Shown: positions 6,773 through 16,207 of the stretch, one piece after another | Layout: each line of letters opens with the position of its first letter | How positions within the stretch are numbered: position 1 is the stretch's first letter | Origin: Gemmatimonadota bacterium | GTDB lineage: Bacteria; Gemmatimonadota; Gemmatimonadetes; Gemmatimonadales; GWC2-71-9 | Assembly: GCA_039587215.1 (NCBI GenBank) | Contig: JBDHIW010000001.1 | Span: 2,371 to 66,370 of the forward strand | Direction of reading: 5' to 3' | Length of the DNA: 64,000 nt | Notes under the pieces: model-generated | Told to the model about the DNA's origin: nothing | Database searches by the model: none | Seen by the model: only the letters and a program-made list of their open reading frames with translations | Translations under genes and position numbers: made by a program

Positions 6773-7522
6773 TCAGCGGTTCTTGATCTCGACCCTCACC
6801 GACGACACCTCGTCGGCCGCGGCTTCGATCTCGATCTGCGCCTCTTCCATGGCGGCGCGCGCCTCTTCGAGCGCCTTCTGCACTTCCGCGTTGATCTTGT
6901 CCACGTCCACGTTCACCTCGATGCGCTGCCCGCGAACGCTGCGAAGCTCCCGTCGGAGGTTGGTGCGCAGCTCTTCGCGCATCGCCCGGAGCTCCGTCTT
7001 CAGATCCGAGCAGGCATCGGCGCCCGCATCACCCATGTGCCCGCAGGGCGCATGGGCCGCATCCAGGTACAGCGCCGCCTGGTGGCCGATGTTCTCGAAC
7101 ACGACCGACCCGAACCGCACGAGCCCGGCTTCCGCCGCCTCGGCGGCCGTCACACAGTGCACCGCATTCCGGTACCCCATGGGTCCGGAGCGCTCGAACG
7201 CCTCCGGATCGAACCGGAACGAGCAGCCGGCATGCTCCCCGAGCCCGTCGGCTCCGGGTTTGACCAGGACCAGCAGGCTGTCCACGGCCCCCGGTTCCGC
7301 GCGCTGGACCACGACGGTCTGGAGCTTCCCGACGTTGTGGCCGTCCACGTACATGGGCAGGAAGCCCACGTTCAGGGCAACCGGGTCTGAGCTGTGCTCG
7401 AGCTCGTACGACCAGTTCTCGATGGTGTGCTTGATGTCCCGGACCTCGCCGGCCCCCCTCGTGATCGCGAGGCCCCCGAGAACGACCAGCGGGGCGACAA
7501 TGGCGATGAATGCTCTCTTCAT
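6773..7522 (-). CDS. Hypothetical membrane-anchored/secreted protein with C-terminal coiled coil
   Basis: 249 aa with an N-terminal hydrophobic segment (MKRAFIAIVAPLVVLGGLAI), four Cys, and a charged heptad-like C-terminal third (ELRAMREELRTNLRRELR...EEARAAMEEAQIEIEAAADE). I recognise no family. Confidence 0.6.
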   Translation of the reverse strand: MKRAFIAIVAPLVVLGGLAITRGAGEVRDIKHTIENWSYELEHSSDPVALNVGFLPMYVDGHNVGKLQTVVVQRAEPGAVDSLLVLVKPGADGLGEHAGCSFRFDPEAFERSGPMGYRNAVHCVTAAEAAEAGLVRFGSVVFENIGHQAALYLDAAHAPCGHMGDAGADACSDLKTELRAMREELRTNLRRELRSVRGQRIEVNVDVDKINAEVQKALEEARAAMEEAQIEIEAAADEVSSVRVEIKNR

Positions 7523-7704
7523 GATGAACCTTCCGGAGTCGGTACGTCGTGTCTCGCCTCACTACGGACCCGGCCGCCCGAGGGTTTCGACCTGCCAACC
7601 CCTCGCACTCGCTCGCCGGGGACCATCCTGGGCCTCCACCATTCCCTAGCCGAACCGCTTGGCGGACGGCATCTTATGGCCTGTCCTCACCCCAGGAGTC
7701 GGCC

Positions 7705-8820
7705 GTGAAGCGACGGGCGTTCTTCCAAACCGGGCTCGCCGCCGGTCTCGTCGGAGCAGGCATGGGTGATCCCGCCGCGCTCCTCGCCCGCCCACGGCGG
7801 CAGGACGGCGGCATCCGGCTGCATTCCAACGAAAACCCCCTGGGCGTCGGGCCGAAAGCCCGACAGGCGGTCACGGACGAGCTGCAAACAGGCCACCAGT
7901 ACCCGCGGGCGCTTCGGGAAGCCCTGACCGGACGACTTGCCGAGCACCACGGCGTCCCGGTGGAAGCGATCGTTCTCGGCGCCGGCTCGACGGAGATTCT
8001 TCGGGTCGCCGTGCAGGCGCTGGGCATGCAGGCCGACCGGATCGTCATCGCCGAGCCGACCTTCGAGGATTCCTGGCGCTACGCGCGGATCGCCCCGACG
8101 CCGGTCCAGGCGCTCCCCCTGCGCGCCGACATGTCGCACGACGTGCCGCGGATGCGCGCGGCCGCGGACCGCGCCGACGGGCCCGTCGTGGTCTTTCTGT
8201 GCAATCCCAACAACCCCACGGGCACGATCACGCCGAGCGCCGAGATCGACGAGTGGATCGCCGCGGCACCGGACGATCACTTTTTCCTGGTCGACGAGGC
8301 CTACTTCGACTTCGTCGAGTCGCCGGCCTACCACACGGCGATCCGTTGGACGGGTGATCGCCGCAACGTGCTGGTGGTGCGGACGTTCTCCAAGGTGTAC
8401 GGCATGGCGGGACTGCGGCTCGGGTACGGCATCGCCCACCCCGAACTCGCCGCACGGTTCGAGGGATGGCTCACGCGCAACAACGGCAATCAGCTCGCGC
8501 TGGCGGCCGCGCTCGCAAGCCTCGAAGACCGGGCGTTCGTGGAGCGCAGCCTCGGCGTCAATCGGCAGGCCCGGCAGATCGCCCACGAGTGCCTGGACGA
8601 GCTCGGGTTGGCGTACCTCCCGTCGCACACCAACTTCCTGATGCACCGCATTCGGGGAGACCACGACGCATACCGCGAGCGGATGCGGACGCACGGTCTC
8701 CTCGTGGGCCGGCAGTTCCCGCCGATGACGACGTACAACCGATTATCCATGGGTCTCGCTTCGGAGATGACGCAATGGGCAGAGACGCTTCGTATGTTTC
8801 GACGCGAGGGGTGGGTATGA
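7705..8820 (+). CDS. Class I/II PLP aminotransferase (histidinol-phosphate aminotransferase family) with twin-arginine signal
   Basis: I prefer the GTG start at 7705, preceded by AGGAG 7 nt upstream. N-terminus is VKRRAFFQTGLAAGLVGAG (Tat-like). Motifs LHSNENPLG, FLCNPNNPTG and FSKVYGMAGLRLGY (PLP lysine) are present. The track ORF begins at 7549. Confidence 0.85.
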   Translation: MKRRAFFQTGLAAGLVGAGMGDPAALLARPRRQDGGIRLHSNENPLGVGPKARQAVTDELQTGHQYPRALREALTGRLAEHHGVPVEAIVLGAGSTEILRVAVQALGMQADRIVIAEPTFEDSWRYARIAPTPVQALPLRADMSHDVPRMRAAADRADGPVVVFLCNPNNPTGTITPSAEIDEWIAAAPDDHFFLVDEAYFDFVESPAYHTAIRWTGDRRNVLVVRTFSKVYGMAGLRLGYGIAHPELAARFEGWLTRNNGNQLALAAALASLEDRAFVERSLGVNRQARQIAHECLDELGLAYLPSHTNFLMHRIRGDHDAYRERMRTHGLLVGRQFPPMTTYNRLSMGLASEMTQWAETLRMFRREGWV

Positions 8821-9887
8821 GACACGCAGTCGCGCTCGTGTTGACGCTCGCGTTGGGCGTCCCGGCCGCCGCCACCGGACAGGAGTGGGATCAGGGCGAG
8901 ACGCGTCCACCGCGTCCGCTGTTCTCCTCGGACGACCTCCTCACGATCACGTTCCGGGGCGCGTTCCGCGAACTGGACCGGGACAAGAACCGCGAGAACG
9001 AGGAACGCCCCGCCGAGATGATCGTACACGGCGACGGCGATGCCGCGGACACGTTCGCGGTCGACATCCGTGCCCGTGGAAAGTTCAGGCGCAGCCACTG
9101 TCGCTTCCCTCCGATCCGGCTCGACTTCAAGACCGGTGACATGGAGGGCACCCTCTTCGAGGGCATGAACCGGGTCAAGCTCGTGACGCACTGCGATCCG
9201 CGGCGGGACGTGTACGAGGAGTATGTCCTGCAGGAGTACCTGATCTATCGGGCGTTCAACCTCGTGTCCGACCTCAGCTTCCGTGCCCGGCTCGCGCGCG
9301 TCACCTACGTCGACACGGGTGAGGACGACCGCGAGGTCACCAAGTACGCCTTCATGATCGAGCCGAAGGAGGAGCTCGCGGAACGCAACGGCTGGGACGT
9401 GGTAGAGGCGCCGGTGATCCCGCCGGGCGCCGTCGAGCCCGAGATGACGGCTCTCGTCGAGATGTTCATGTACTTCATCGCGAACACCGACTGGGATCCG
9501 TTCATGTCGGCGCCCGACGAAGATTTCTGCTGTCACAACATCCAGCCGATCGGCCGCGGCTACGGGCCGGTATTCCCGGTCCCCTACGACTTCGACTTCT
9601 CGGGCGTCATCAACACGCGCTACGCGGTCCCCGATCAGTCGCTGGATATCCGCTCGGTGCGGGACCGCCTGTACCGCGGCCTCTGCCGGCCCATCGAGGC
9701 GCTCCAGCCGGTGTTCGACCGGTTCAACGAACTCCGTCCGGAGATCGAGGCGCTCTATCGATCGCAGGAAGGCCTCGAGGAACGGACCGTCGAGCGGACG
9801 CTCGACTTCTACGAGCGCTTCTACGAGACGATCAACGACCCGCGTCGCGCCGATCGGGCGTTCGTGCGGCAGTGCCGGGGAGTCTGA
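8817..9887 (+). CDS. Secreted hypothetical protein, possibly CotH-like atypical kinase fold
   Basis: ATG at 8817 overlaps the upstream stop (ATGA). Signal peptide is MRHAVALVLTLALGVPAAATG. The motif order IRARGKFRRSHCRFPPIRLDFK / NRVKLVTHCD / YAFMIEPKEE / IANTDWD / PVPYDFDFSG resembles the CotH family profile. The CDS call is solid; the family call is tentative. Confidence 0.6.
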   Translation: MRHAVALVLTLALGVPAAATGQEWDQGETRPPRPLFSSDDLLTITFRGAFRELDRDKNRENEERPAEMIVHGDGDAADTFAVDIRARGKFRRSHCRFPPIRLDFKTGDMEGTLFEGMNRVKLVTHCDPRRDVYEEYVLQEYLIYRAFNLVSDLSFRARLARVTYVDTGEDDREVTKYAFMIEPKEELAERNGWDVVEAPVIPPGAVEPEMTALVEMFMYFIANTDWDPFMSAPDEDFCCHNIQPIGRGYGPVFPVPYDFDFSGVINTRYAVPDQSLDIRSVRDRLYRGLCRPIEALQPVFDRFNELRPEIEALYRSQEGLEERTVERTLDFYERFYETINDPRRADRAFVRQCRGV

Positions 9888-10735
9888 CGACCGTGGACCG
9901 CGACACGCGCAGATCGGTGGCCGGAGTAGCGGTCTACTACATCCTGCTGATCGGAGCGAATTGGCTCCTGAGCCGGTACGTGCCCGCGTGGGCCGAGCTT
10001 TTTGCGCAGGGCCGTCTGGAAGAGCTGTCTCGGGCGCCGCTCGACCTCTCGGCCCCGCCGACCGGGAGCCCCCTCGCCACGTCCTGGCTCTCCGCCGGCG
10101 CGGCGATGGTCGGCGCCCTGCTGCTCGTGATCCCCGTTGCCTGGGTGTACATCATCACGAAGCGCAACCTGAGCTATGACCCCTCGGTGGTGCAGACGAT
10201 CATCATTCTGCCCATCGCCGTCGCCGGCATCGTTCTGGTCGTGCAGCACAGCCTCACGCTCGCCTTCAGTCTCGCGGGGATCGTCGCGGCCGTCCGCTTC
10301 CGGAACACGCTCAAGGACACCAAGGACGCCGTGTACGTGTTCCTGGCCATCGGGGTGGGCCTCTCCGCAGGCGTGCAGGCCTTCGCCATCGCGGTCACGA
10401 TGTCGGTCGTGTTTAACCTCGTGGTGCTGGGCCTGTGGCGCTTCAACGTGGGGAACATCTATGCCACGGCGGGCACACCGAGCGATGCCGGGTCGACGTA
10501 TCACGGCACCGTGCACGTGCGGGGAGGCGACCCGACGGAGGTGGCTCCTCTCGTGGAGGGCGTGCTCACGGCCGACACCAAGAAGTGGCAGCGCGTGGAC
10601 GACGTCGATGACGGCCTCGCGTACCTCGTCCAGTTCAAGAAGAAGAAGAACCCGCCGCCGGTCGTCGTCGAGACGATCCGCATGCGCGGGGCGCGCTTCA
10701 ACGTGCACGTCGAATACGTGCCGCACGGCGGCTGA
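9872..10735 (+). CDS. DUF4956-like multi-pass membrane protein
   Basis: 287 aa from GTG 9872 (alternative GTG 9893) with several hydrophobic helices. The core SLAGIVAAVRFRNTLKDTKDAVYVFLAIGVGLSAG resembles the conserved DUF4956 segment. A soluble C-terminal tail follows. Confidence 0.65.
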   Translation: MPGSLTTVDRDTRRSVAGVAVYYILLIGANWLLSRYVPAWAELFAQGRLEELSRAPLDLSAPPTGSPLATSWLSAGAAMVGALLLVIPVAWVYIITKRNLSYDPSVVQTIIILPIAVAGIVLVVQHSLTLAFSLAGIVAAVRFRNTLKDTKDAVYVFLAIGVGLSAGVQAFAIAVTMSVVFNLVVLGLWRFNVGNIYATAGTPSDAGSTYHGTVHVRGGDPTEVAPLVEGVLTADTKKWQRVDDVDDGLAYLVQFKKKKNPPPVVVETIRMRGARFNVHVEYVPHGG

Positions 10736-10741
10736 GCGCCC

Positions 10742-13700
10742 ATGACCGACGAGATTCGCTTCGACGTTCCCGTTCGCGACACGCTGTCGCGGCTTACGGA
10801 GGAGCCCCTCCCGCTGAGCATGCGCGAGGGCGCTTCGCGCCGCGACGCCTTCCGCGACGTGTTCTACGACACGAAGACGCGGGATCTGCATGAGCGGGGG
10901 ATCACGGTCACCATCCGCCACCGCGTGGACGACACCCGCGAACTCCTGCTCGGGATCTCCGGGCTCGGGACCGCGCGGATGGAGTATCGCGCCGAAACGA
11001 CAGCCAGCGACGCCACCGCGATCTTCGCCAGCGACTCCGACCCTGCACGGCGCCTGCGCGCGCTCGTGGACCCAAGCCGGCTCGTCTCGTGTCTCGAACT
11101 CACCGTCGACCGCCAGGTTCGCGCGGCGTGGAAGGGATTCATCCCCCGCGCGCAGTTCGAAGTGACGTACGAGTCGCTCATCGCCCGTGCCGAAGAGCTC
11201 AAGTCCGAGTACTGGCAGGTCGCGGTCCGGCGCATTCGGAAGGGCGGCCCTGAGCTCGAGGCCGTCGCCGCCGCCCTGGCGGAGCCGCACGGCCTGCGCA
11301 TCGCGCAGGACAACCCCCTGGCCCGCGGCATGCACGCGCTCGACACCATCGAGAGCCAGGCCCTGGTCGACGCGGTCCAGTCGCACCACGAGGTCACGGT
11401 GCTGGCGGTCGAATCCGGCCGGATCGCGCTGCAGCGCGCCCGGGACGACCTGCGTCTGCCGTTCCGCCTGGGCAGCGGGGAGGACATGTGCCGCGAGCTG
11501 ATGCGTGAGGCCTTCGGCAGCGGTGAGGGGCAGCTCGTAAAACTGGGCGTGGTTCCGGCCACCCCCAGCCGCCCGGCGATCGACGTGTGGCTCGCCCGTC
11601 GCCTCGCCCGTTCCGTCGCGTCCGCGACGGCGGCCTATCAGTGGTTCCTCCCGTCCGAGATTCTCGAACGCGTCGGGTCCCCCGTGCTGCGCGACCCGCG
11701 CACCCTGGCGGCGCTCACGATCGCGTCGCGCTCGGAGTCGCTGCCCGAATGGTCCGACGGCGCGCGCGAGGGATGGCGCGGCGAAACCAGCCTCCCGACC
11801 GACGAGTTCGCGGTCTCGTCACGCCAGACCCTGACCGCCCTGCAGGTCCCGATGCTCCGCGAGGAGGCCCTCGACGTCAAGACGCGCGCGCCCGAGCAGT
11901 ACCTCAACGCGGAGCTGAGCTGGCTCGCCTTCAACCTGCGCGTGCTCGCGCTCGCGGAGGACCCCTCGATCCCCCTCCTCGCCCGCGTGCGGTTCCTCGC
12001 GATCTCCAACATGAACCTGGACGAGTTCTTCCAGGTGAAGATCGCCGGACTCAAGCAGGCGACCGCCCTCGGGATCACCGACCTGTCGGCGGACGGCATG
12101 ACGCCGGAAGAGCAGCTGGATGCCCTGCTGATCCGTGTGCGGGCGTTCGTCGAGCGACAGTACCGCTGCCTGGAGGAGCTGATGCAGCGCGACCTCGTCG
12201 CGGAAGGCATCCGGATCCGACAGTGGTCGGATCTCACCGACGACGAGGCCGCCGGACTGCGAACCTATTTCGAGACGCAGGCCTTCCCACTGCTGACGCC
12301 GCGCGCCATCACGCGGGCACCGGGTCACCCGTTCCCGATGATCGACGAGCAGCAGATGTCGCTTGCCGTCCTCGTGCACGACCCGGCCACTCAGCGCACC
12401 CAGCTTGCGCAGCTCAAGGTTCCCGACTCGCTCCCCCGCTTCGTCCGCCTGCCCAACACGGACGACGTCGTCGCACTGGAGGAGATCATTCAAGCCTGCG
12501 CGGGGTCCCTCTATCCAGGACGTGAGATCGAGGGGATCTATCCGTTTCGCGTCATTCGGGCGGGTGACATCGACCTCGACGAGCGGTCCGCCTCGAGCTT
12601 CGCGCAGGCGATCGAGGAACAGCTCCGGCGTCGCGCTATCGCCCCCGTCGTGCGCTTCGACGCGGTTGCGACCATGCCCGACACGGTGCGGGACACGCTG
12701 CTCCGCGAGATGCGATTCGAGGACTCGAGCCAGTCCGGGGGGCTCACCGACGCCGACGTCTACGACGTGCCGGGCATGATCGACCTGAGTGGACTCTCGG
12801 ATCTCACCAAGCTGGCGCGCCCGGAACTGGACTATCCCGCGTTCACCGCCGCGAGCCCGTTCCCCGACGACCGCTCGATCTTCGACCTGCTCGACGAGGG
12901 CGACCGCCTCGTCCATCACCCCTACGACGCGTTCGCGTCCACCTTCGAGCGGTTCGTGGTCGAGGCGGCCGACGACCCCGACGTGGTCGCCATCAAGCTC
13001 ACGCTCTACCGCCCCGGCGGCCCGTCGCTCATGGGCGACGCGATCCGGCGTGCCGCCGAGTCGGGCAAGGACGTGTCGGTGTTCGTGGAACTCAAGGCGC
13101 GCTTCGACGAGCAACGGAACATTGGGTGGGCGAAACAGCTCGAGCGTGCGGGCATCCAAGTGGTGACCGGGCTGGTGAAGTACAAGACGCACGCGAAGAT
13201 CGCCCTGGTGGTGCGCCGCGCGGGCAGCGAGCTCAAGCGCTACGTCCAGATCAGCACGGGGAACTACAACCCGCACTCGTCGAAGCTGTACACCGACTTC
13301 GGGCTCTTCACCGCGGATCCCGGCGTCACCGCGGACGTGCACACGCTCTTCAACGAACTCACCGGATCGACCCAGGCGCCGCAGGCGGAATACGCGCACC
13401 TCCTCGTCGCACCGACGAACATGCGGGACCGGTTCCTGACGATGATCGAGCGGGAGATGGAGCACGCGCGCCGCGGACGGCCCGCGAGCATCCGCGCGAA
13501 GATGAACGCGCTGGCCGACCCAACGATCATCGAGGCCCTGTACCGCGCCTCGCAGAGCGGCGTCGACATCGACCTCGTCATCCGAGGCTTCTGTGTGCTG
13601 CGACCGGGCGTTCCGAACCTCTCGGAGCGGATTCGCGTCGTCTCCCTGCTCGGGCGGTTCCTCGAGCATGCACGCGTCTTCGCCTTCCACAACGGCGGCG

Positions 13701-13966
13701 AGCCTGAGTACTACCTCGGCTCGGCCGACTGGCGGCCACGCAACCTCAAGCGGCGTGTCGAGGTGATGGCGCCGGTGCGTGACCCCGAGCTCCAGGCCCG
13801 CCTGGACTCCATGCTCCGCGCAGAAATCGACGACGCGCTGGCCTGGGAACTCGGATCGGACGGGACCTATACCCAGGTGACGGCCCCAACTGGTATGGAG
13901 CTCGTCGGCTCCCAGGAGCTGTTTCTGCGCGAAGCCGCTGAGCGGCAGGCCGCCGCCACGCCCTGA
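10742..13966 (+). CDS. ppk1: Polyphosphate kinase 1 with ~384-aa N-terminal CYTH/VTC-like extension
   Basis: 1074 aa. Residues ~385-1074 carry PPK1 hallmarks (NAELSWLAFNLRVLALAED, RFLAISNMNLDEFFQVKIAGL, KYKTHAKIALVVR, GSADWRPRNLKRRVEV). Residues 1-~195 look like CYTH (DVFYDTKTRDLHERGITVTIRH...). Normal PPK1 is ~690 aa. Confidence 0.9.
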   Translation: MTDEIRFDVPVRDTLSRLTEEPLPLSMREGASRRDAFRDVFYDTKTRDLHERGITVTIRHRVDDTRELLLGISGLGTARMEYRAETTASDATAIFASDSDPARRLRALVDPSRLVSCLELTVDRQVRAAWKGFIPRAQFEVTYESLIARAEELKSEYWQVAVRRIRKGGPELEAVAAALAEPHGLRIAQDNPLARGMHALDTIESQALVDAVQSHHEVTVLAVESGRIALQRARDDLRLPFRLGSGEDMCRELMREAFGSGEGQLVKLGVVPATPSRPAIDVWLARRLARSVASATAAYQWFLPSEILERVGSPVLRDPRTLAALTIASRSESLPEWSDGAREGWRGETSLPTDEFAVSSRQTLTALQVPMLREEALDVKTRAPEQYLNAELSWLAFNLRVLALAEDPSIPLLARVRFLAISNMNLDEFFQVKIAGLKQATALGITDLSADGMTPEEQLDALLIRVRAFVERQYRCLEELMQRDLVAEGIRIRQWSDLTDDEAAGLRTYFETQAFPLLTPRAITRAPGHPFPMIDEQQMSLAVLVHDPATQRTQLAQLKVPDSLPRFVRLPNTDDVVALEEIIQACAGSLYPGREIEGIYPFRVIRAGDIDLDERSASSFAQAIEEQLRRRAIAPVVRFDAVATMPDTVRDTLLREMRFEDSSQSGGLTDADVYDVPGMIDLSGLSDLTKLARPELDYPAFTAASPFPDDRSIFDLLDEGDRLVHHPYDAFASTFERFVVEAADDPDVVAIKLTLYRPGGPSLMGDAIRRAAESGKDVSVFVELKARFDEQRNIGWAKQLERAGIQVVTGLVKYKTHAKIALVVRRAGSELKRYVQISTGNYNPHSSKLYTDFGLFTADPGVTADVHTLFNELTGSTQAPQAEYAHLLVAPTNMRDRFLTMIEREMEHARRGRPASIRAKMNALADPTIIEALYRASQSGVDIDLVIRGFCVLRPGVPNLSERIRVVSLLGRFLEHARVFAFHNGGEPEYYLGSADWRPRNLKRRVEVMAPVRDPELQARLDSMLRAEIDDALAWELGSDGTYTQVTAPTGMELVGSQELFLREAAERQAAATP

Positions 13967-13974
13967 CCCAGGAA

Positions 13975-14006
13975 CCCCTCGCGGGACACCGGTGTACCCG
14001 CGAGAG
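13975..14006 (+). terminator. Hairpin downstream of ppk1
   Basis: CTCGCGGGACACC/GGTGTACCCGCGAG is a near-perfect inverted repeat with one bulged A. It begins ~10 nt after the ppk1 stop. There is no clear T-tract. Confidence 0.45.
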
Positions 14007-14063
14007 GACAGAATACGGCGTGTGTCAATTCCGTAAGTCGTTTTGTGGCAGCTCCTTAGATTA

Positions 14064-14079
14064 TGGCACGCATCTCGCA
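14064..14079 (+). promoter_or_regulatory. Sigma-54-like -24/-12 promoter element
   Basis: TGGCACG-catc-TCGCA compared with consensus TGGCACG-N4-TTGCW gives one mismatch. It lies in a locally AT-richer intergenic patch, 67 nt upstream of the ATG at 14146, which has a strong AGGAGG Shine-Dalgarno. Confidence 0.35.
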
Positions 14080-14145
14080 ATTCTCGAAGGGCGCGATGGC
14101 GCGCACTGCGCCACGGGCATAGCTTGGACTTAGCAGGAGGCGCCC

Positions 14146-15822
14146 ATGCAGAAAGCACTGCTCTTCGCCGCACTCGCCGGATCGACCGTGGCAGCGGCCC
14201 CGACAGCGGTCCAGGCCCGCCAGGACGATCCCGCCGTCCAGATCACGCTCAACAAGCGTCAGCCGTTCGAGCGCGGTCACCGGGTGAGAGCGTTCGTGCG
14301 GACGGAAGACGACGGTTACCTGCTCGTCCTGCATGCCGAACCCGACGGGCGCATCCGCGTGCTCTTCCCGGTCGATCCGTACCGCGACGATTACGTGCGC
14401 GGCGGCCGTCGGAACGAAATCCGCGGGCGCGGAGATCGCGAAGCTTTCCGGGTCTTCGAGCGAAGCGGAATTGGGACCGTCTTCGCGGCCTTTTCCCGCG
14501 ACCCGTTCCAGCTCGGCGCGTTCATTCGCGAGGATCACTGGGACTACCGCGCGCTGGACGAGTGGCGGCTCACCGGAGACCGAGACGCCGAAGCAGAGCT
14601 CGTCGCGCTCGCGCAAGAGATCACCGGGCGCACGTTCTTCGAATACGACGTGCTGCACTACGGTGTCGGAGCCGAGTACGTCGCCCACGGCCACACGCAC
14701 TACCGATTCTCGGTCGGGCTGGGCTACGGCTGGCCTTACTACGGCTATGGATCCGGGTGGTACAGCGGCGCGCGGGTCTCCTTCGGCCCGTTCCACGTCG
14801 GGTACTACACGCGTCCGTACCGACGGTGGCGGTCACTACACTTCTGCGACCCGTTCGTCTACGACGCGTGGGCGTGCGGCCTGGCGTACGACCCGTACTG
14901 GTATGGCCGGCACTGGGATCCGTGGGTCGACTGGCGCTGGTACGCGCTCGAGCCCTATCGGACGGTGTACTACCAAGCACCGCGCGCGAGGGTCTACTAC
15001 CGCAGCCCGCGGTTCGGCCCCACCGCCATTGGGTATGGCAAGTACGCGTTCAAGAACGACGCGCAGTCCGGCCTGACCGGCGGCATCGGCGTGCGCCGTC
15101 GAGCACCGGAAACCTACCGGGTCGCCGATGCGCGGAGACGCTCGGCCCCCACGACCGTCGCTCCTGGGGTGCGTACCACGGCCGGCCGTCGCGCGGTCGA
15201 TGAAACTCCAGCGCAACGCGCAGGCGCCACCGAGCGGGCGCGGCCGCAGGGCTGGGGCATGACCGACGGGCGACGAGTCGTCCCGTCGACTGAGACCCCG
15301 GCAGCCGACCCGACTCGGAATCGGGCCGTGCCCGGCCGGCGGGGCGTCGATACGCAGCGACCCGAAGCCGGCGGGCAGGCGGTAGACCGTCGGCCGACGC
15401 GCCGCACCGGATCGGTCGCGCCGCCGAGGACTCGGGCGGACGTCGACGCGGTCGCACCTCGGCGCTCCACGGAGGAGTCCAGCGCCGACCGGGCACCGGC
15501 CCGGACACCGCGGCGGGTCACCGTCCCCGGACGGACCAGCCCGCGGCCGCAGGCGACGACGCAGCGTGCACCGACGCGATCGACACCGTCGGTCAGGCGC
15601 ACGCCCACGCGGAGTACGCCGAGCGCCCAGCGCGCGCCGGCCCGAGGCTCCGTGTCGCGGCAGCCGGCCCGCAGTTCGGGGTCGGTCCGACAGTCGCCTC
15701 GCCCGTCAGTGCGCCAACCGAGCCGGCCGACGGTCCGATCGTCCCGGCCCGCCGTACGCCGCGCGCCGGCACGCACCACCACCCGGCGACCGCGCCCCAC
15801 CGCGCGACGGCCGAAGCCATAG
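14146..15822 (+). CDS. Secreted DUF4384-like protein with aromatic-rich core and long Arg/Pro/Thr/Ser-rich C-terminal tail
   Basis: 558 aa with signal peptide MQKALLFAALAGSTVAAAPTAVQA. The DUF4384-like block is FERGHRVRAFVRTEDDGYLLVLHAEPDGRIRVLFPVDPY. A W/Y/G-rich middle follows, and residues ~313-558 are a basic low-complexity tail. A paralog lies at 34475-35413. Confidence 0.75.
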   Translation: MQKALLFAALAGSTVAAAPTAVQARQDDPAVQITLNKRQPFERGHRVRAFVRTEDDGYLLVLHAEPDGRIRVLFPVDPYRDDYVRGGRRNEIRGRGDREAFRVFERSGIGTVFAAFSRDPFQLGAFIREDHWDYRALDEWRLTGDRDAEAELVALAQEITGRTFFEYDVLHYGVGAEYVAHGHTHYRFSVGLGYGWPYYGYGSGWYSGARVSFGPFHVGYYTRPYRRWRSLHFCDPFVYDAWACGLAYDPYWYGRHWDPWVDWRWYALEPYRTVYYQAPRARVYYRSPRFGPTAIGYGKYAFKNDAQSGLTGGIGVRRRAPETYRVADARRRSAPTTVAPGVRTTAGRRAVDETPAQRAGATERARPQGWGMTDGRRVVPSTETPAADPTRNRAVPGRRGVDTQRPEAGGQAVDRRPTRRTGSVAPPRTRADVDAVAPRRSTEESSADRAPARTPRRVTVPGRTSPRPQATTQRAPTRSTPSVRRTPTRSTPSAQRAPARGSVSRQPARSSGSVRQSPRPSVRQPSRPTVRSSRPAVRRAPARTTTRRPRPTARRPKP

Positions 15823-15961: not shown

Positions 15962-16207
15962 ATGTCGGCCGTGAAGATCGAGCACTTCGTCGAAAAACTC
16001 GAAGAGCTGAAGCGGGAAATGGATGCCGGGATGTTGCGGCACGGTGAGTACGACCAGCGGCTTGCCCGGGTCATCAGTGAGCTCCGCGACCGGAAGCTCG
16101 AGGCGACTCGAGAGGAGATCCACTCGACTCTGGACGACCTGCTCAGCCGCGGCGTGATCACGCCGTCCGTCAAGATCCACCTGCAGTCGCGGCTGGGCCT
16201 GGACTAG
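15962..16207 (+). CDS. Small hypothetical protein with SHOCT-like motif
   Basis: 81 aa with GAGGAG 8 nt upstream of the ATG. The helical charged sequence KLEELKREMDAGMLRHGEYDQRLARVISEL resembles the SHOCT short-domain pattern. A strong terminator follows. Confidence 0.55.
   Translation: MSAVKIEHFVEKLEELKREMDAGMLRHGEYDQRLARVISELRDRKLEATREEIHSTLDDLLSRGVITPSVKIHLQSRLGLD

Follow-up and report, generated by a model that had tools for sequence, protein, structure and literature searches.

What is the function of the 384-residue extension at the N terminus of PPK1 in this Gemmatimonadota bacterium? PPK1 is the main bacterial polyphosphate (polyP) synthase and is normally viewed as a stand-alone enzyme of ~690 aa. 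To our knowledge, no dedicated regulatory domains are ordinarily ascribed to it. Gemmatimonadota are common in soils and are related to the polyphosphate-accumulating Gemmatimonas. In the window, meaning the whole 64,000-nucleotide stretch of DNA that was analyzed, the PPK1-fusion open reading frame (ORF) spans 10742-13966 on the + strand and encodes 1074 aa. A longer N terminus is impossible because the start is the first start codon after a stop. The extension consists of a CYTH/triphosphate-tunnel (TTM) domain (residues 1-213), a Nudix fold (214-335), and a linker (336-384), and it is followed by the PPK1 core (residues ~385-1071). A first-pass annotation had suggested that the extension may hold two catalytically dead domains that bind ligands or regulate and that gate PPK1. 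The features of the locus are as follows.

8817..9887, + strand: ORFX, ~356 aa, with a signal-peptide-like N terminus, weakly CotH-like (homology, synteny, Pfam)

9872..10735, + strand: DUF4956 membrane protein, 287 aa (Pfam DUF4956)

10742..11380, + strand: CYTH/TTM domain, including the C-terminal plug helix at residues 192-213 (AF2, Foldseek, family profile, hhalign, Pfam CYTH)

10745..10759, + strand: beta1 remnant of ExExK, T2-D3-E4-I5-R6 (column counts over 78 non-redundant members)

11210..11236, + strand: strand matching E158-L-E160-L-E162 of YgiF, reading Y157-W-Q159-V-A161-V-R163-R-I in the window (HMMER and hhalign alignments)

11381..11746, + strand: Nudix-fold domain, residues 214-335, apparently without a functional Nudix box (AF2, Foldseek, column counts)

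11471..11521, + strand: Nudix-box remnant, residues 244-260, G-S-G-E-D-M-C-R-E-L-M-R-E-A-F-G-S (profile alignment to the Thermus ADPRase, column counts)

11747..11893, + strand: linker, residues 336-384, disordered and poorly conserved (pLDDT, pairwise identity)

11894..13966, + strand: complete PPK1 with N, head, C1, and C2 domains (Pfam, NCBIfam, phmmer)

The PPK1 core is complete and intact. Residues 386-1071 matched all four Pfam PPK1 domains with E values of 8.6e-32 to 6.3e-64, and TIGR03705 scored 736.9 bits against a cutoff of 465.85. The catalytic His motifs are KTHAK at residues 815-819 (13184-13198) and FLEHAR at residues 973-978 (13658-13675). In EcPPK1, the catalytic residues are H435 and H592 (PMC6537752). 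A phmmer comparison with solved PPK1 structures gave an E value of 3.7e-106 with HAK and LEH aligned, a motif-level correspondence taken from the alignment to 9uuh and not to E. coli 1xdo. Compared with canonical PPK1 (E. coli 1xdo/1xdp, ~690 aa), residues 385-1071 match end to end and include both His motifs. However, the canonical enzyme has no N-terminal extension, while the fusion measures ~1050-1090 aa, or ~1317 aa when DUF4956 is fused as well.

Metagenome assemblies can, as a general possibility, generate such a protein through a mis-called start, a frameshift, or a chimera that joins separate CYTH, Nudix, and ppk1 genes. That general possibility is all that speaks for an artifact here, and the idea is refuted because the protein recurs as one uninterrupted ORF of ~1030-1100 aa, both at 78 independent loci and among >120 protein clusters (NCBI, JGI, ENA, Logan). 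An identical protein is also on record (P0193, on a 67-kb contig), although an exact look-up of the window protein returned no contig. We therefore give the artifact explanation practically no credence. The fusion was present in every complete ORF of the 78 loci, which come from 73 species-level genomes, all Gemmatimonadota, and in all of the best 120 full-length relatives. No cultured, named species was among the relatives found. A word-index search with the extension yielded 11 relatives, one with a profile of the second domain 4, and an exhaustive representative search 685; the patterns for the genome scan were built from a tight alignment of 7 sequences. Public annotation calls the fusion only "polyphosphate kinase" and ignores the two putative pseudoenzyme domains of this phylum-wide PPK1, of which the Nudix-like one is unseen by Pfam.

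The first part of the extension had been read as a CYTH-like domain, and this fold was borne out by the family profile, hhalign, and Foldseek. Since a PDB search with the single window sequence returned no matches, family profiles were needed for the comparison. The family profile matched YgiF (5a60) with an E value of 3e-6 and an hhalign probability of 92%. An AF2 model of the window protein had a pLDDT of ~90 over residues 1-200. When compared with the PDB using Foldseek, its closest match was again YgiF 5a60 (E = 2.8e-9), and dozens of TTMs followed at E < 1e-5. The model shows the predicted eight-stranded antiparallel beta-tunnel with a C-terminal plug helix that characterizes the TTM fold. 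Pfam CYTH (PF01928) gave 18.5-20.5 bits on the window protein alone, below the cutoff of 23.2; it was found at E <= 1 in 37 of 39 family members (best E = 1.2e-11), and ~40% of full-length relatives have a precomputed match. The CYTH-like elements FRDVFYDT and EVTYES do lie at residues 37-44 and 140-145. A VTC-family polymerase (PF09359) was also considered for the tunnel domain and rejected, as Pfam VTC was found in 0 of 39 members. Vtc4 (3g3r) was a weaker fold match than YgiF (Foldseek E = 1.2e-6 versus 2.8e-9).

YgiF, the CYTH-CHAD inorganic triphosphatase of E. coli (5a60/5a61), was the best profile and fold match for residues 1-213. In both proteins, an N-terminal TTM tunnel precedes a second domain, and the context is polyP-related. 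Among the basic residues of the tunnel, R58, R126, and K148 of YgiF correspond to R59, R127, and R149 of the fusion. The two differ in that YgiF stands alone while the fusion continues into PPK1, and in that the second domain of YgiF is CHAD (two four-helix bundles), whereas a mixed alpha/beta Nudix domain occupies this place in the fusion. They also differ in their metal ligands, as E4, E6, E160, and E162 of YgiF are not conserved in the fusion.

Using the residue roles defined experimentally for YgiF (PMC4641920), we examined which functional positions the family has kept. The N terminus reads MTDEIRFDV (residues 1-9), as had been noted, and beta1 in the window is T2-x-E4-x-R6. The consensus of 78 non-redundant members is x-x-[E 36%]-x-[R/K 85%]-[FLWC]-[D/E 68%]-V-P. 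The register of beta1 relative to ExExK cannot be fixed because hhalign leaves residues 1-36 unaligned. ExExK, which supplies the ligands of metal site 2 and the Lys, was intact in 1 of 83 members when one register was used and in 0 of 83 with the other. The claim that the motif is missing held up: realignment recovered an intact copy in neither the window nor 82 of 83 relatives. The site-1 Glu (YgiF E160 or AtTTM3 E169), which is invariant in characterized TTMs (PMC4641920), aligns with A161 of the window, and 10 of 83 members have Glu there. The position of E162 is R163 in the window, acidic in 3 of 83 members, and Arg or His in 59%. Catalytic R56 of YgiF aligns with T57, although 73 of 83 relatives have Arg or Lys there.

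The tunnel still has a conserved cluster of Arg. The triphosphate-binding basic residues R56, R58, R126, and K148 of YgiF correspond to R57 (85%), R59 (92%), R127 (92%), and R149 (74%) in the family; of these, the window lacks the catalytic Arg, which is T57 there, and keeps the other three. R38 (99%), R124 (94%), and R195 (88%) are likewise conserved. D43 is invariant (100%), and D/E144 (97%) and E159 (68%) are other acidic residues that have been kept. On beta5, a row of acidic residues, E119-x-[E/D]121-x-[E/D]123, has at least two of its three positions acidic in 71 of 83 members. None of the 83 members compared carries the full canonical TTM residue set. The domain is not globally basic (net charge of -3 in the window and a family median of +3), and the charge therefore lends no support to the binding of long-chain polyP.

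These residues bear on a different explanation, that enzymatic activity persists in one or both accessory domains through non-canonical active sites. The CYTH domain might, for example, act as a tripolyphosphatase or polyphosphatase through the beta5 acidic row, in which case one bifunctional protein would both synthesize polyP and trim it, clearing short-chain products or making primers. The beta5 row, invariant D43, D/E144, and E159 could in principle form a relocated metal site and hence sustain residual activity. In AtTTM3, a mid-sequence Glu (E90) adds to the acidic patch (PMC4641920), the Arg cluster is kept in the fusion family, including the equivalent of R56 in 73 of 83 members, and genes for Nudix and TTM hydrolases are typical neighbors of ppk (PMC12995831, PMC6537752). 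Against this, the invariant site-1 Glu survives in few members, ExExK is essentially missing, no member has the complete set, and the window also lacks the catalytic Arg. The glutamates of the second domain, considered below, weigh against it too. We regard retained hydrolysis as unlikely.

For the second domain, the earlier reading was a Nudix-like layout at residues ~215-295. The fold proved right, but the extent did not, since the domain is longer and covers residues 214-335. An AF2 model of this domain alone had a pLDDT of 91.1 and a pTM of 0.84. Foldseek returned 222 PDB matches at E <= 1e-3, and the top ones were all Nudix proteins. The best was the Thermus ADPRase 3x0j (E = 4.5e-7, TM 0.63), followed by YmfB, AraR, NUDT12, and GDPMH. 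The model has the predicted alpha/beta/alpha sandwich of the Nudix fold. A CHAD domain, which the analogy with YgiF would have placed here, was ruled out by the Nudix fold found with Foldseek and by the lack of a Pfam CHAD match. Residues 200-384 were found to be neither CHAD nor another unrelated fold, as they comprise the Nudix fold and the disordered linker. The linker has a pLDDT of <50 over residues 338-384 in the AF2 model.

The Nudix box itself is corrupted. GSGED (residues 244-248) and RELMREAFG (251-259) are where they had been described, and both column counts and register tests agreed with the earlier view that the latter is a degenerate box. Full REx2EE was found in 0-1 of 73 members across the three registers tried; in the window, it is absent in all three, and at most two of the three Glu are present. 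With the register anchored on the C-cap glycine of the helix, hydrophobic or variable residues take the places of the catalytic Glu, which speaks against a remaining hydrolase site. Pfam NUDIX (PF00293) was not found in the window, was found in 1 of 55 members (E = 0.041), and was absent from the precomputed matches of the best 120 full-length relatives. What is conserved in the remnant is G244 (99%), G246 (99%), E247 (85%), R251 (93%), L/M254 (96%), and G259 (88%). Beyond it are W283 (100%), W301 (99%), and a C-terminal helical motif, G312-S-P-x-L-R317-D-P-x-T321-L-A-A-L...R330-S.

Nudix hydrolases such as the Thermus thermophilus ADP-ribose pyrophosphatase Ndx4, E. coli YmfB, and GDP-mannose hydrolase share the fold with this domain over ~130 residues (TM 0.63-0.69, E values down to 4.5e-7). 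They also share a loop-helix-loop where the Nudix box lies, and its C-cap Gly is retained (G259 here). Unlike them, the fusion lacks the REx2EE glutamates (at most 1 of 73 members), is invisible to Pfam NUDIX, and has its own GSGE..R motif and a C-terminal helical extension. The effector domains of NrtR and AraR (5deq, 5bs6), which were among the top fold matches, also combine a Nudix fold with a degenerate box and are precedents for non-catalytic Nudix effector domains (PMC2330246, PMC4666351). In those proteins, the degenerate box serves ligand binding, whereas a ligand role for the fusion domain is only putative. They are joined to DNA-binding domains and regulate transcription, while the domain in the fusion sits between a TTM and a kinase. 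By analogy, AraR, which was among the Foldseek matches, and NrtR lend precedent to the putative sensing of (poly)phosphate or nucleotides and gating of PPK1 that the first-pass annotation proposed.

Taken together, the canonical catalytic sets are missing from both accessory domains, in the window and family-wide. The first-pass annotation suggested that the two domains may be catalytically dead. The loss of canonical residues (A161, R163, T57, and no full REx2EE), as judged by alignment, supports this as a probable reading, although the beta5 acidic row could in principle rebuild a metal site.

The extension might instead be a purely structural relic, a former neighboring pair of YgiF-like and MutT-like genes that became fused to ppk1 and now serves folding, oligomerization, or localization to granules or the membrane without specific ligand binding. 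CHAD/TTM and Nudix genes are common near ppk, which makes a fusion of neighbors plausible (PMC6537752, PMC12995831). Mean pairwise identity is also lower in the CYTH and Nudix domains (30-32%) than in the PPK1 catalytic domains (55-57%), and it falls to 14% in the linker. However, the inward-facing tunnel Arg and GSGE..R..G are kept at 85-100% among members that are <50% identical overall, more than upkeep of the fold would demand. We consider a mere relic distinctly unlikely.

The explanation we prefer, with about even chances of being correct, is a Gemmatimonadota-specific PPK1 whose two pseudoenzyme-fold domains act as a non-catalytic ligand-binding and tethering module. Both domains keep the folds of phosphoanhydride hydrolases without the canonical catalytic residues, and a flexible linker of ~45 residues connects them to PPK1. 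Judging from sequence, most likely neither hydrolyzes a substrate, and together they may bind and tether. The conserved Arg cluster of the tunnel would suit a phosphate chain, which could be PPPi, the end of a polyP molecule, or a nucleotide triphosphate. The conserved surface of the Nudix-like domain (GSGE..R..G, W283, W301, and GSPxLRDPxTLAAL) would suit a ligand or another protein as partner. In this way, the module could modulate or localize PPK1 and link it to the products of the neighboring genes, the DUF4956 protein in the membrane and the CotH-like one that is secreted. Should its ligand turn out to be a phosphate or a nucleotide, PPK1 would gain its first described internal unit for allosteric control or substrate handling.

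The genes upstream of the fusion provide the context for such coupling. In the window, the ATG of ORFX overlaps the stop of an upstream aminotransferase gene (ATGA), the stop of ORFX overlaps the start of the DUF4956 gene, and the latter ends 6 nt before the PPK1 start. The DUF4956 protein of the window scored 39.4 bits with Pfam against a cutoff of 30.6. A scan for promoters and terminators over 7000-15000 found nothing above shuffled expectation. At 56 of 65 loci (86%), the gene immediately upstream of the fusion is ORFX. DUF4956 is adjacent to or fused with the PPK1 fusion in 25 of 65 loci (38%) and is missing from the immediate neighborhood in 62%. Thus, DUF4956 is not an obligatory partner encoded next door. 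In three protein clusters (P0013, P0210, and P0211), it is fused to the N terminus of the CYTH domain. The fusion and the operon together suggest an undescribed form of polyP control or routing.

A contiguous unit of cotH, a VTC-type polyP polymerase, and DUF4956 is recognized in Streptococci, Clostridia, and Bifidobacteria (10.1101/768473; 10.1101/2024.04.20.589940), although this Gram-positive module is itself uncharacterized (10.1101/2024.04.20.589940). The arrangement of ORFX, DUF4956, and the PPK1 fusion appears to parallel that set. Three neighboring genes fill matching roles in the pel loci of Gram-positives and in the locus described here: one encodes a secreted protein that is CotH-like (weakly so here), one a membrane protein of the DUF4956 family, and one a cytoplasmic polyP synthase that bears a TTM. 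In the Gram-positive set, synthesis falls to a VTC-family TTM with catalytic residues, whereas the locus here combines a degenerate CYTH-type TTM with PPK1 as the synthase. The Gram-positive set also has a pel context, which this one does not, and only 38% of the loci have DUF4956 here.

The parallel invites a more specific mechanism, a VTC-like hand-off in which PPK1 would feed its polyP through the degenerate TTM tunnel to DUF4956 for translocation, and the chain would then be used or modified by the CotH-like protein outside. We hold this route to be a long shot. The matching evolutionary statement is also quite improbable: the locus would be the Gemmatimonadota counterpart of the Gram-positive set, with PPK1 having replaced the TTM as synthase and the TTM kept as an adaptor. 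The co-operonic ORFX, DUF4956, and TTM-bearing synthase, and the three clusters with DUF4956 joined directly to the TTM N terminus, are consistent with a hand-off. In Vtc4p, basic residues that guide the growing chain take the place of the acidic patch of hydrolytic TTMs (PMC4641920), and in the fusion, 59% of members have Arg or His at the E162 equivalent, and a conserved Arg lies on beta1. However, the tunnel is CYTH-type and not VTC-type, as seen above in the Pfam VTC result (0/39) and the better Foldseek match of YgiF than of Vtc4, and the domain is not globally basic. DUF4956 is missing beside the fusion in most loci and has no known transport function, the CotH match is sub-threshold, the ORFX of the window has no Pfam match, and the Gram-positive module offers no characterized precedent.

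Extending the hand-off across phyla leads to a conjecture with a slim chance of being right, that of a common envelope module of polyP synthase, DUF4956, and CotH-like protein in which the synthase has been non-orthologously displaced, being a VTC-type TTM in Gram-positives and PPK1 in Gemmatimonadota. The degenerate TTM, with the dead Nudix domain as a spacer, would be the adaptor that passes the nascent chain to DUF4956, for use beyond the cytoplasmic membrane by the CotH-like protein. If true, bacteria would have in this envelope module a counterpart of the eukaryotic VTC complex, which couples translocation to synthesis. The operon ties PPK1 to an uncharacterized gene set that holds a VTC-type polyP polymerase in Gram-positives, and what DUF4956 and these CotH-like proteins do can thus be approached independently from two sides.

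The first-pass annotation had been made without this genomic context, that is, without the Gemmatimonadota-wide occurrence of the fusion or the conserved operon that it shares with DUF4956 and a secreted protein resembling CotH. The CotH label for ORFX comes from the family: CotH was the top Pfam model but remained sub-threshold, matching 8 of 47 members with a best E value of 2.6e-4, and the window's own copy had no Pfam match. Searches of ORFX profiles against PDB sequences gave nothing meaningful. The ORFX of the window is 43% identical to the ORFX neighbor at another locus (L002). Within the family, N241-x-D243, H258-N259, and Y275-D-x-D278-x-x-G281 are invariant, numbered on the first sequence of the family alignment, which starts at window position 8763.

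The polyphosphate kinase gene of the window encodes a fusion protein in which 384 residues precede PPK1.

10742-13966, + strand: fusion ORF, 1074 aa
10742-11893, + strand: N-terminal extension, 384 residues before PPK1

No start codon lies between the ORF start and the preceding in-frame stop, which makes a longer N-terminus impossible. Residues 386-1071 matched NCBIfam TIGR03705 at 736.9 bits (cutoff, 465.85) as well as each of the four PPK1 domains in Pfam, and solved PPK1 structures aligned along the whole of the PPK1 part (E=3.7e-106). Both catalytic histidine motifs are present, KTHAK (815-819) and FLEHAR (973-978); the catalytic roles of H435 and H592 in EcPPK1 are described in PMC6537752. 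The PPK1 of the fusion is intact.

The first-pass annotation, whose quoted peptide strings were all located where it had placed them, had read the extension as a CYTH domain lacking ExExK plus a degenerate Nudix domain, possibly catalytically dead sensors. By itself, the window sequence of the first domain scored 18.5-20.5 bits against Pfam CYTH, under the threshold of 23.2, and had no match in the PDB. A profile of relatives matched E. coli YgiF (5a60; E=3e-4 to 3e-6), hhalign of the family against YgiF gave 92% probability, and 37/39 relatives matched Pfam CYTH (best E=1.2e-11), while 0/39 matched Pfam VTC. The AF2 model was confident for residues 1-335 (pLDDT mostly 80-94), and its closest PDB folds were YgiF (E=2.8e-9) and then many TTM enzymes, with Vtc4p a weaker match (1.2e-6) than YgiF. 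The family profile, hhalign, Pfam matches of relatives, and model agree with the earlier assignment, and domain 1 is a CYTH/TTM tunnel.

As a reference we used the YgiF residue set of Martinez et al. 2015 (PMC4641920), in which E4, E6, and E162 are the ligands of metal 2, the catalytic residue is R56, and K69 helps bind substrate. Two HMMER alignments and hhalign agreed in mapping YgiF E158, E160, and E162 to window Q159, A161, and R163; R56 and R58 to T57 and R59; and R126, D143, and K148 to R127, E144, and R149. Counted over 78-83 relatives, no family member had the complete YgiF catalytic set. The E160 position was Glu in 10/83 relatives and the E162 position acidic in 3/83 (Arg or His in 59%), and the R56 position was basic in 73/83. 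Strand beta1 has the consensus x-x-[E 36%]-x-[R/K 85%]-[FLWC]-[D/E 68%]-V-P. From the alignments we favor the register in which R6 corresponds to YgiF K8, because R-F-x-V then lines up with K-F-x-V; it is not settled, because residues 1-36 stay unaligned in hhalign. The proposed loss of ExExK held in either register, with the intact motif in 1/83 relatives in one and 0/83 in the other.

Conserved CYTH residues include R38 (99%), R59 (92%), R124 (94%), R127 (92%), R149 (74%), and R195 (88%), along with D43 (100%) and D/E144 (97%). At positions 119, 121, and 123 of beta5, at least two residues are acidic in 71/83 members, so the domain may have a metal site relocated to this row. Such a site leaves room for residual, noncanonical catalysis by the accessory domains, which we consider unlikely. 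The window copy of the CYTH domain has degenerated further than the family consensus, at three residues, and its net charge is -3 versus a family median of +3.

10910-10912, + strand: T57, replacing the Arg of 85% of members at the position of YgiF catalytic R56
10952-10954, + strand: G71
11216-11218, + strand: Q159, replacing the Glu of 68% of members

For the second domain, Pfam NUDIX had no match in the window and matched 1/55 relatives (E=0.041). The best PDB sequence match of the domain profile, Thermus ADP-ribose pyrophosphatase (ADPRase), was weak (E=0.13) and covered the whole domain. An AF2 model of this domain only (55 sequences) was of high confidence (pLDDT, 91.1; pTM, 0.84) and retrieved 222 PDB matches at E<=1e-3, the top ones all Nudix proteins. 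The best was Thermus ADPRase (E=4.5e-7, TM 0.63); others were YmfB, NUDT12, GDP-mannose hydrolase, and AraR, a noncatalytic Nudix-like regulator. As modeled, domain 2 is a Nudix fold, as had been proposed. Residues 338-384 are predicted to be disordered (AF2 pLDDT <50). The Nudix fold matches and this disordered linker rule out CHAD or another unrelated fold for residues 200-384.

We counted the Nudix box, REx2EE, in 73 members under three registers. The first, anchored on the helix C-cap glycine with G259 as the box Gly, equals the HMMER alignment to ADPRase and agrees with predicted helix 246-258; the second, that of the first-pass annotation, has R251 as the box Arg; and the third is anchored on the pair G246-E247. 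The full motif occurred in 0/73, 1/73, and 0/73 members, respectively, and the box is indeed corrupted, with all three Nudix glutamates missing in most members. Conserved in this region instead are G244 (99%), G246 (99%), E247 (85%), R251 (93%), L/M254 (96%), and G259 (88%). Elsewhere the domain conserves E281-V-W283 (W, 100%), W301 (99%), and a C-terminal helical motif, G312-S-P-x-L-R-D-P-x-T-L-A-A-L...R330-S.

Among representatives <50% identical overall, mean pairwise identity was 30-32% in the accessory domains, 14% in the linker, and 39-57% in the PPK1 domains. By these values, the CYTH and Nudix-like domains evolve under constraint. That the extension is a purely structural relic appears distinctly unlikely.

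An exhaustive profile search returned 685 cluster representatives, of which 158 had E<1e-30; many of the 685 measured ~1040-1080 aa. The full-length query found 1540 relatives at E<=1e-50. The best 120 of the 1540 were all full length (at least 89% query coverage), with precomputed matches to CYTH in ~40% and to NUDIX in none; the named ones were annotated only as "polyphosphate kinase (1)." A protein identical to the window fusion (cluster P0193) lies on a 67-kb metagenome contig. Organism names of relatives were Gemmatimonadota, Gemmatimonadales, or Gemmatimonadaceae, with two exceptions, a "bacterium HR33" and an "uncultured bacterium." When a single genome of each GTDB species was scanned with two short peptide patterns, 73 genomes were found, all MAGs named Gemmatimonadota except the "uncultured bacterium." Every complete ORF in 78 loci had the order CYTH, Nudix-like, PPK1, which excludes an assembly or gene-calling artifact; we regard the chance of an artifactual fusion as negligible. 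The architecture is phylum-wide, and our literature search found no paper describing a CYTH-Nudix-PPK1 fusion.

The fusion gene is the last of four window genes arranged head to tail, including ORFX, a conserved secreted, weakly CotH-like ORF.

7549-8820, + strand: aminotransferase, class I/II (Pfam E=8.9e-43)
8817-9887, + strand: ORFX, its ATG overlapping the aminotransferase stop (ATGA)
9872-10735, + strand: DUF4956 membrane protein (Pfam 39.4 bits; cutoff, 30.6), ending 6 nt before the fusion start

Since its stop overlaps the ORFX start, the aminotransferase may be cotranscribed with ORFX-DUF4956-ppk1. ORFX was the most constant neighbor: of the 65 loci whose upstream sequence reached at least 2.3 kb, 56 (86%) had it directly upstream; DUF4956 lay between ORFX and the fusion gene, or was fused, in 25 (38%), and neither was present in 8. 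Three protein clusters (~1317 aa), P0013 (L002:2453-6406), P0210, and P0211, carry DUF4956 as an in-frame fusion to the N-terminus of the CYTH domain.

The N-terminus of ORFX (~356 aa; other copies at L002:1404-2465, L004:5045-6124, and 53 more loci) resembles a signal peptide; several Cys residues are invariant, as are the motifs N-x-D, H-N, and Y-D-x-D-x-x-G. ORFX matched no PDB sequence, and the commonest Pfam family among members was CotH (8/47; best E=2.6e-4, subthreshold). The motif order resembles that of the CotH active site, a lead rather than a test. Longer homologues of 420-775 aa (L003:1-1263, L040:3609-5936, and L064:2916-4661) could be N-terminal fusions or overextended ORF calls. 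In an alignment of window ORFX with L002, L004, and L003 (A5), one of the four matched Pfam Metallophos (E=7.8e-6).

In Streptococci, Clostridia, and Bifidobacteria, a contiguous gene set has been described that encodes a CotH-like kinase, which is secreted, a VTC-type polyP polymerase (TTM) of the cytoplasm, and a membrane protein with DUF4956 (10.1101/768473; 10.1101/2024.04.20.589940). Typical ppk neighbors are Nudix (MutT/YjhB) and CHAD/TTM genes (PMC12995831; PMC6537752). New here is the unannotated module of a pseudo-CYTH and a pseudo-Nudix domain on a PPK1 whose operon also holds CotH-like and DUF4956 genes. A VTC-like hand-off, in which nascent polyP would pass to DUF4956, seems improbable enough that we give it little weight.

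Taken together, two hydrolase folds precede PPK1, both without canonical catalytic sets across the family. They show purifying constraint, alternative conserved motifs, and a flexible tether to an intact PPK1, and the operon around them is conserved. The first-pass interpretation is supported in part, for the folds and the motif loss; sensing of (poly)phosphate or nucleotides and gating of PPK1 are hypothetical. The best-supported reading, to which we give about an even chance, is a noncatalytic binding and tethering module. The CYTH tunnel would hold a phosphate chain; binding of a ligand or partner would fall to the Nudix-like domain, as in the effector domains of NrtR and AraR. Together the two would modulate or localize PPK1 and link it with the CotH-like and DUF4956 proteins. 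Against this count the CYTH charge, which is not globally basic in the window, and most loci, where no DUF4956 adjoins the fusion gene.

Large Omp85-family outer membrane protein genes adjoin the fusion gene in 2 of the first 5 related contigs, and two further ORFs were noted downstream of ppk1 in the window.

L001:5243-7981: Omp85-family gene, between DUF4956 and ppk1
L005:11075-13651: Omp85-family gene, downstream of the fusion gene
14146-15822, + strand: 558-aa ORF ~180 nt downstream of ppk1, with N-terminal DUF4384 (E=8.4e-9); its C-terminal tail is long and rich in Arg, Pro, Thr, and Ser
15962-16207, + strand: 81-aa ORF, weakly matching a SHOCT-like domain (DUF1707; E=4.5e-5, under the Pfam cutoff)
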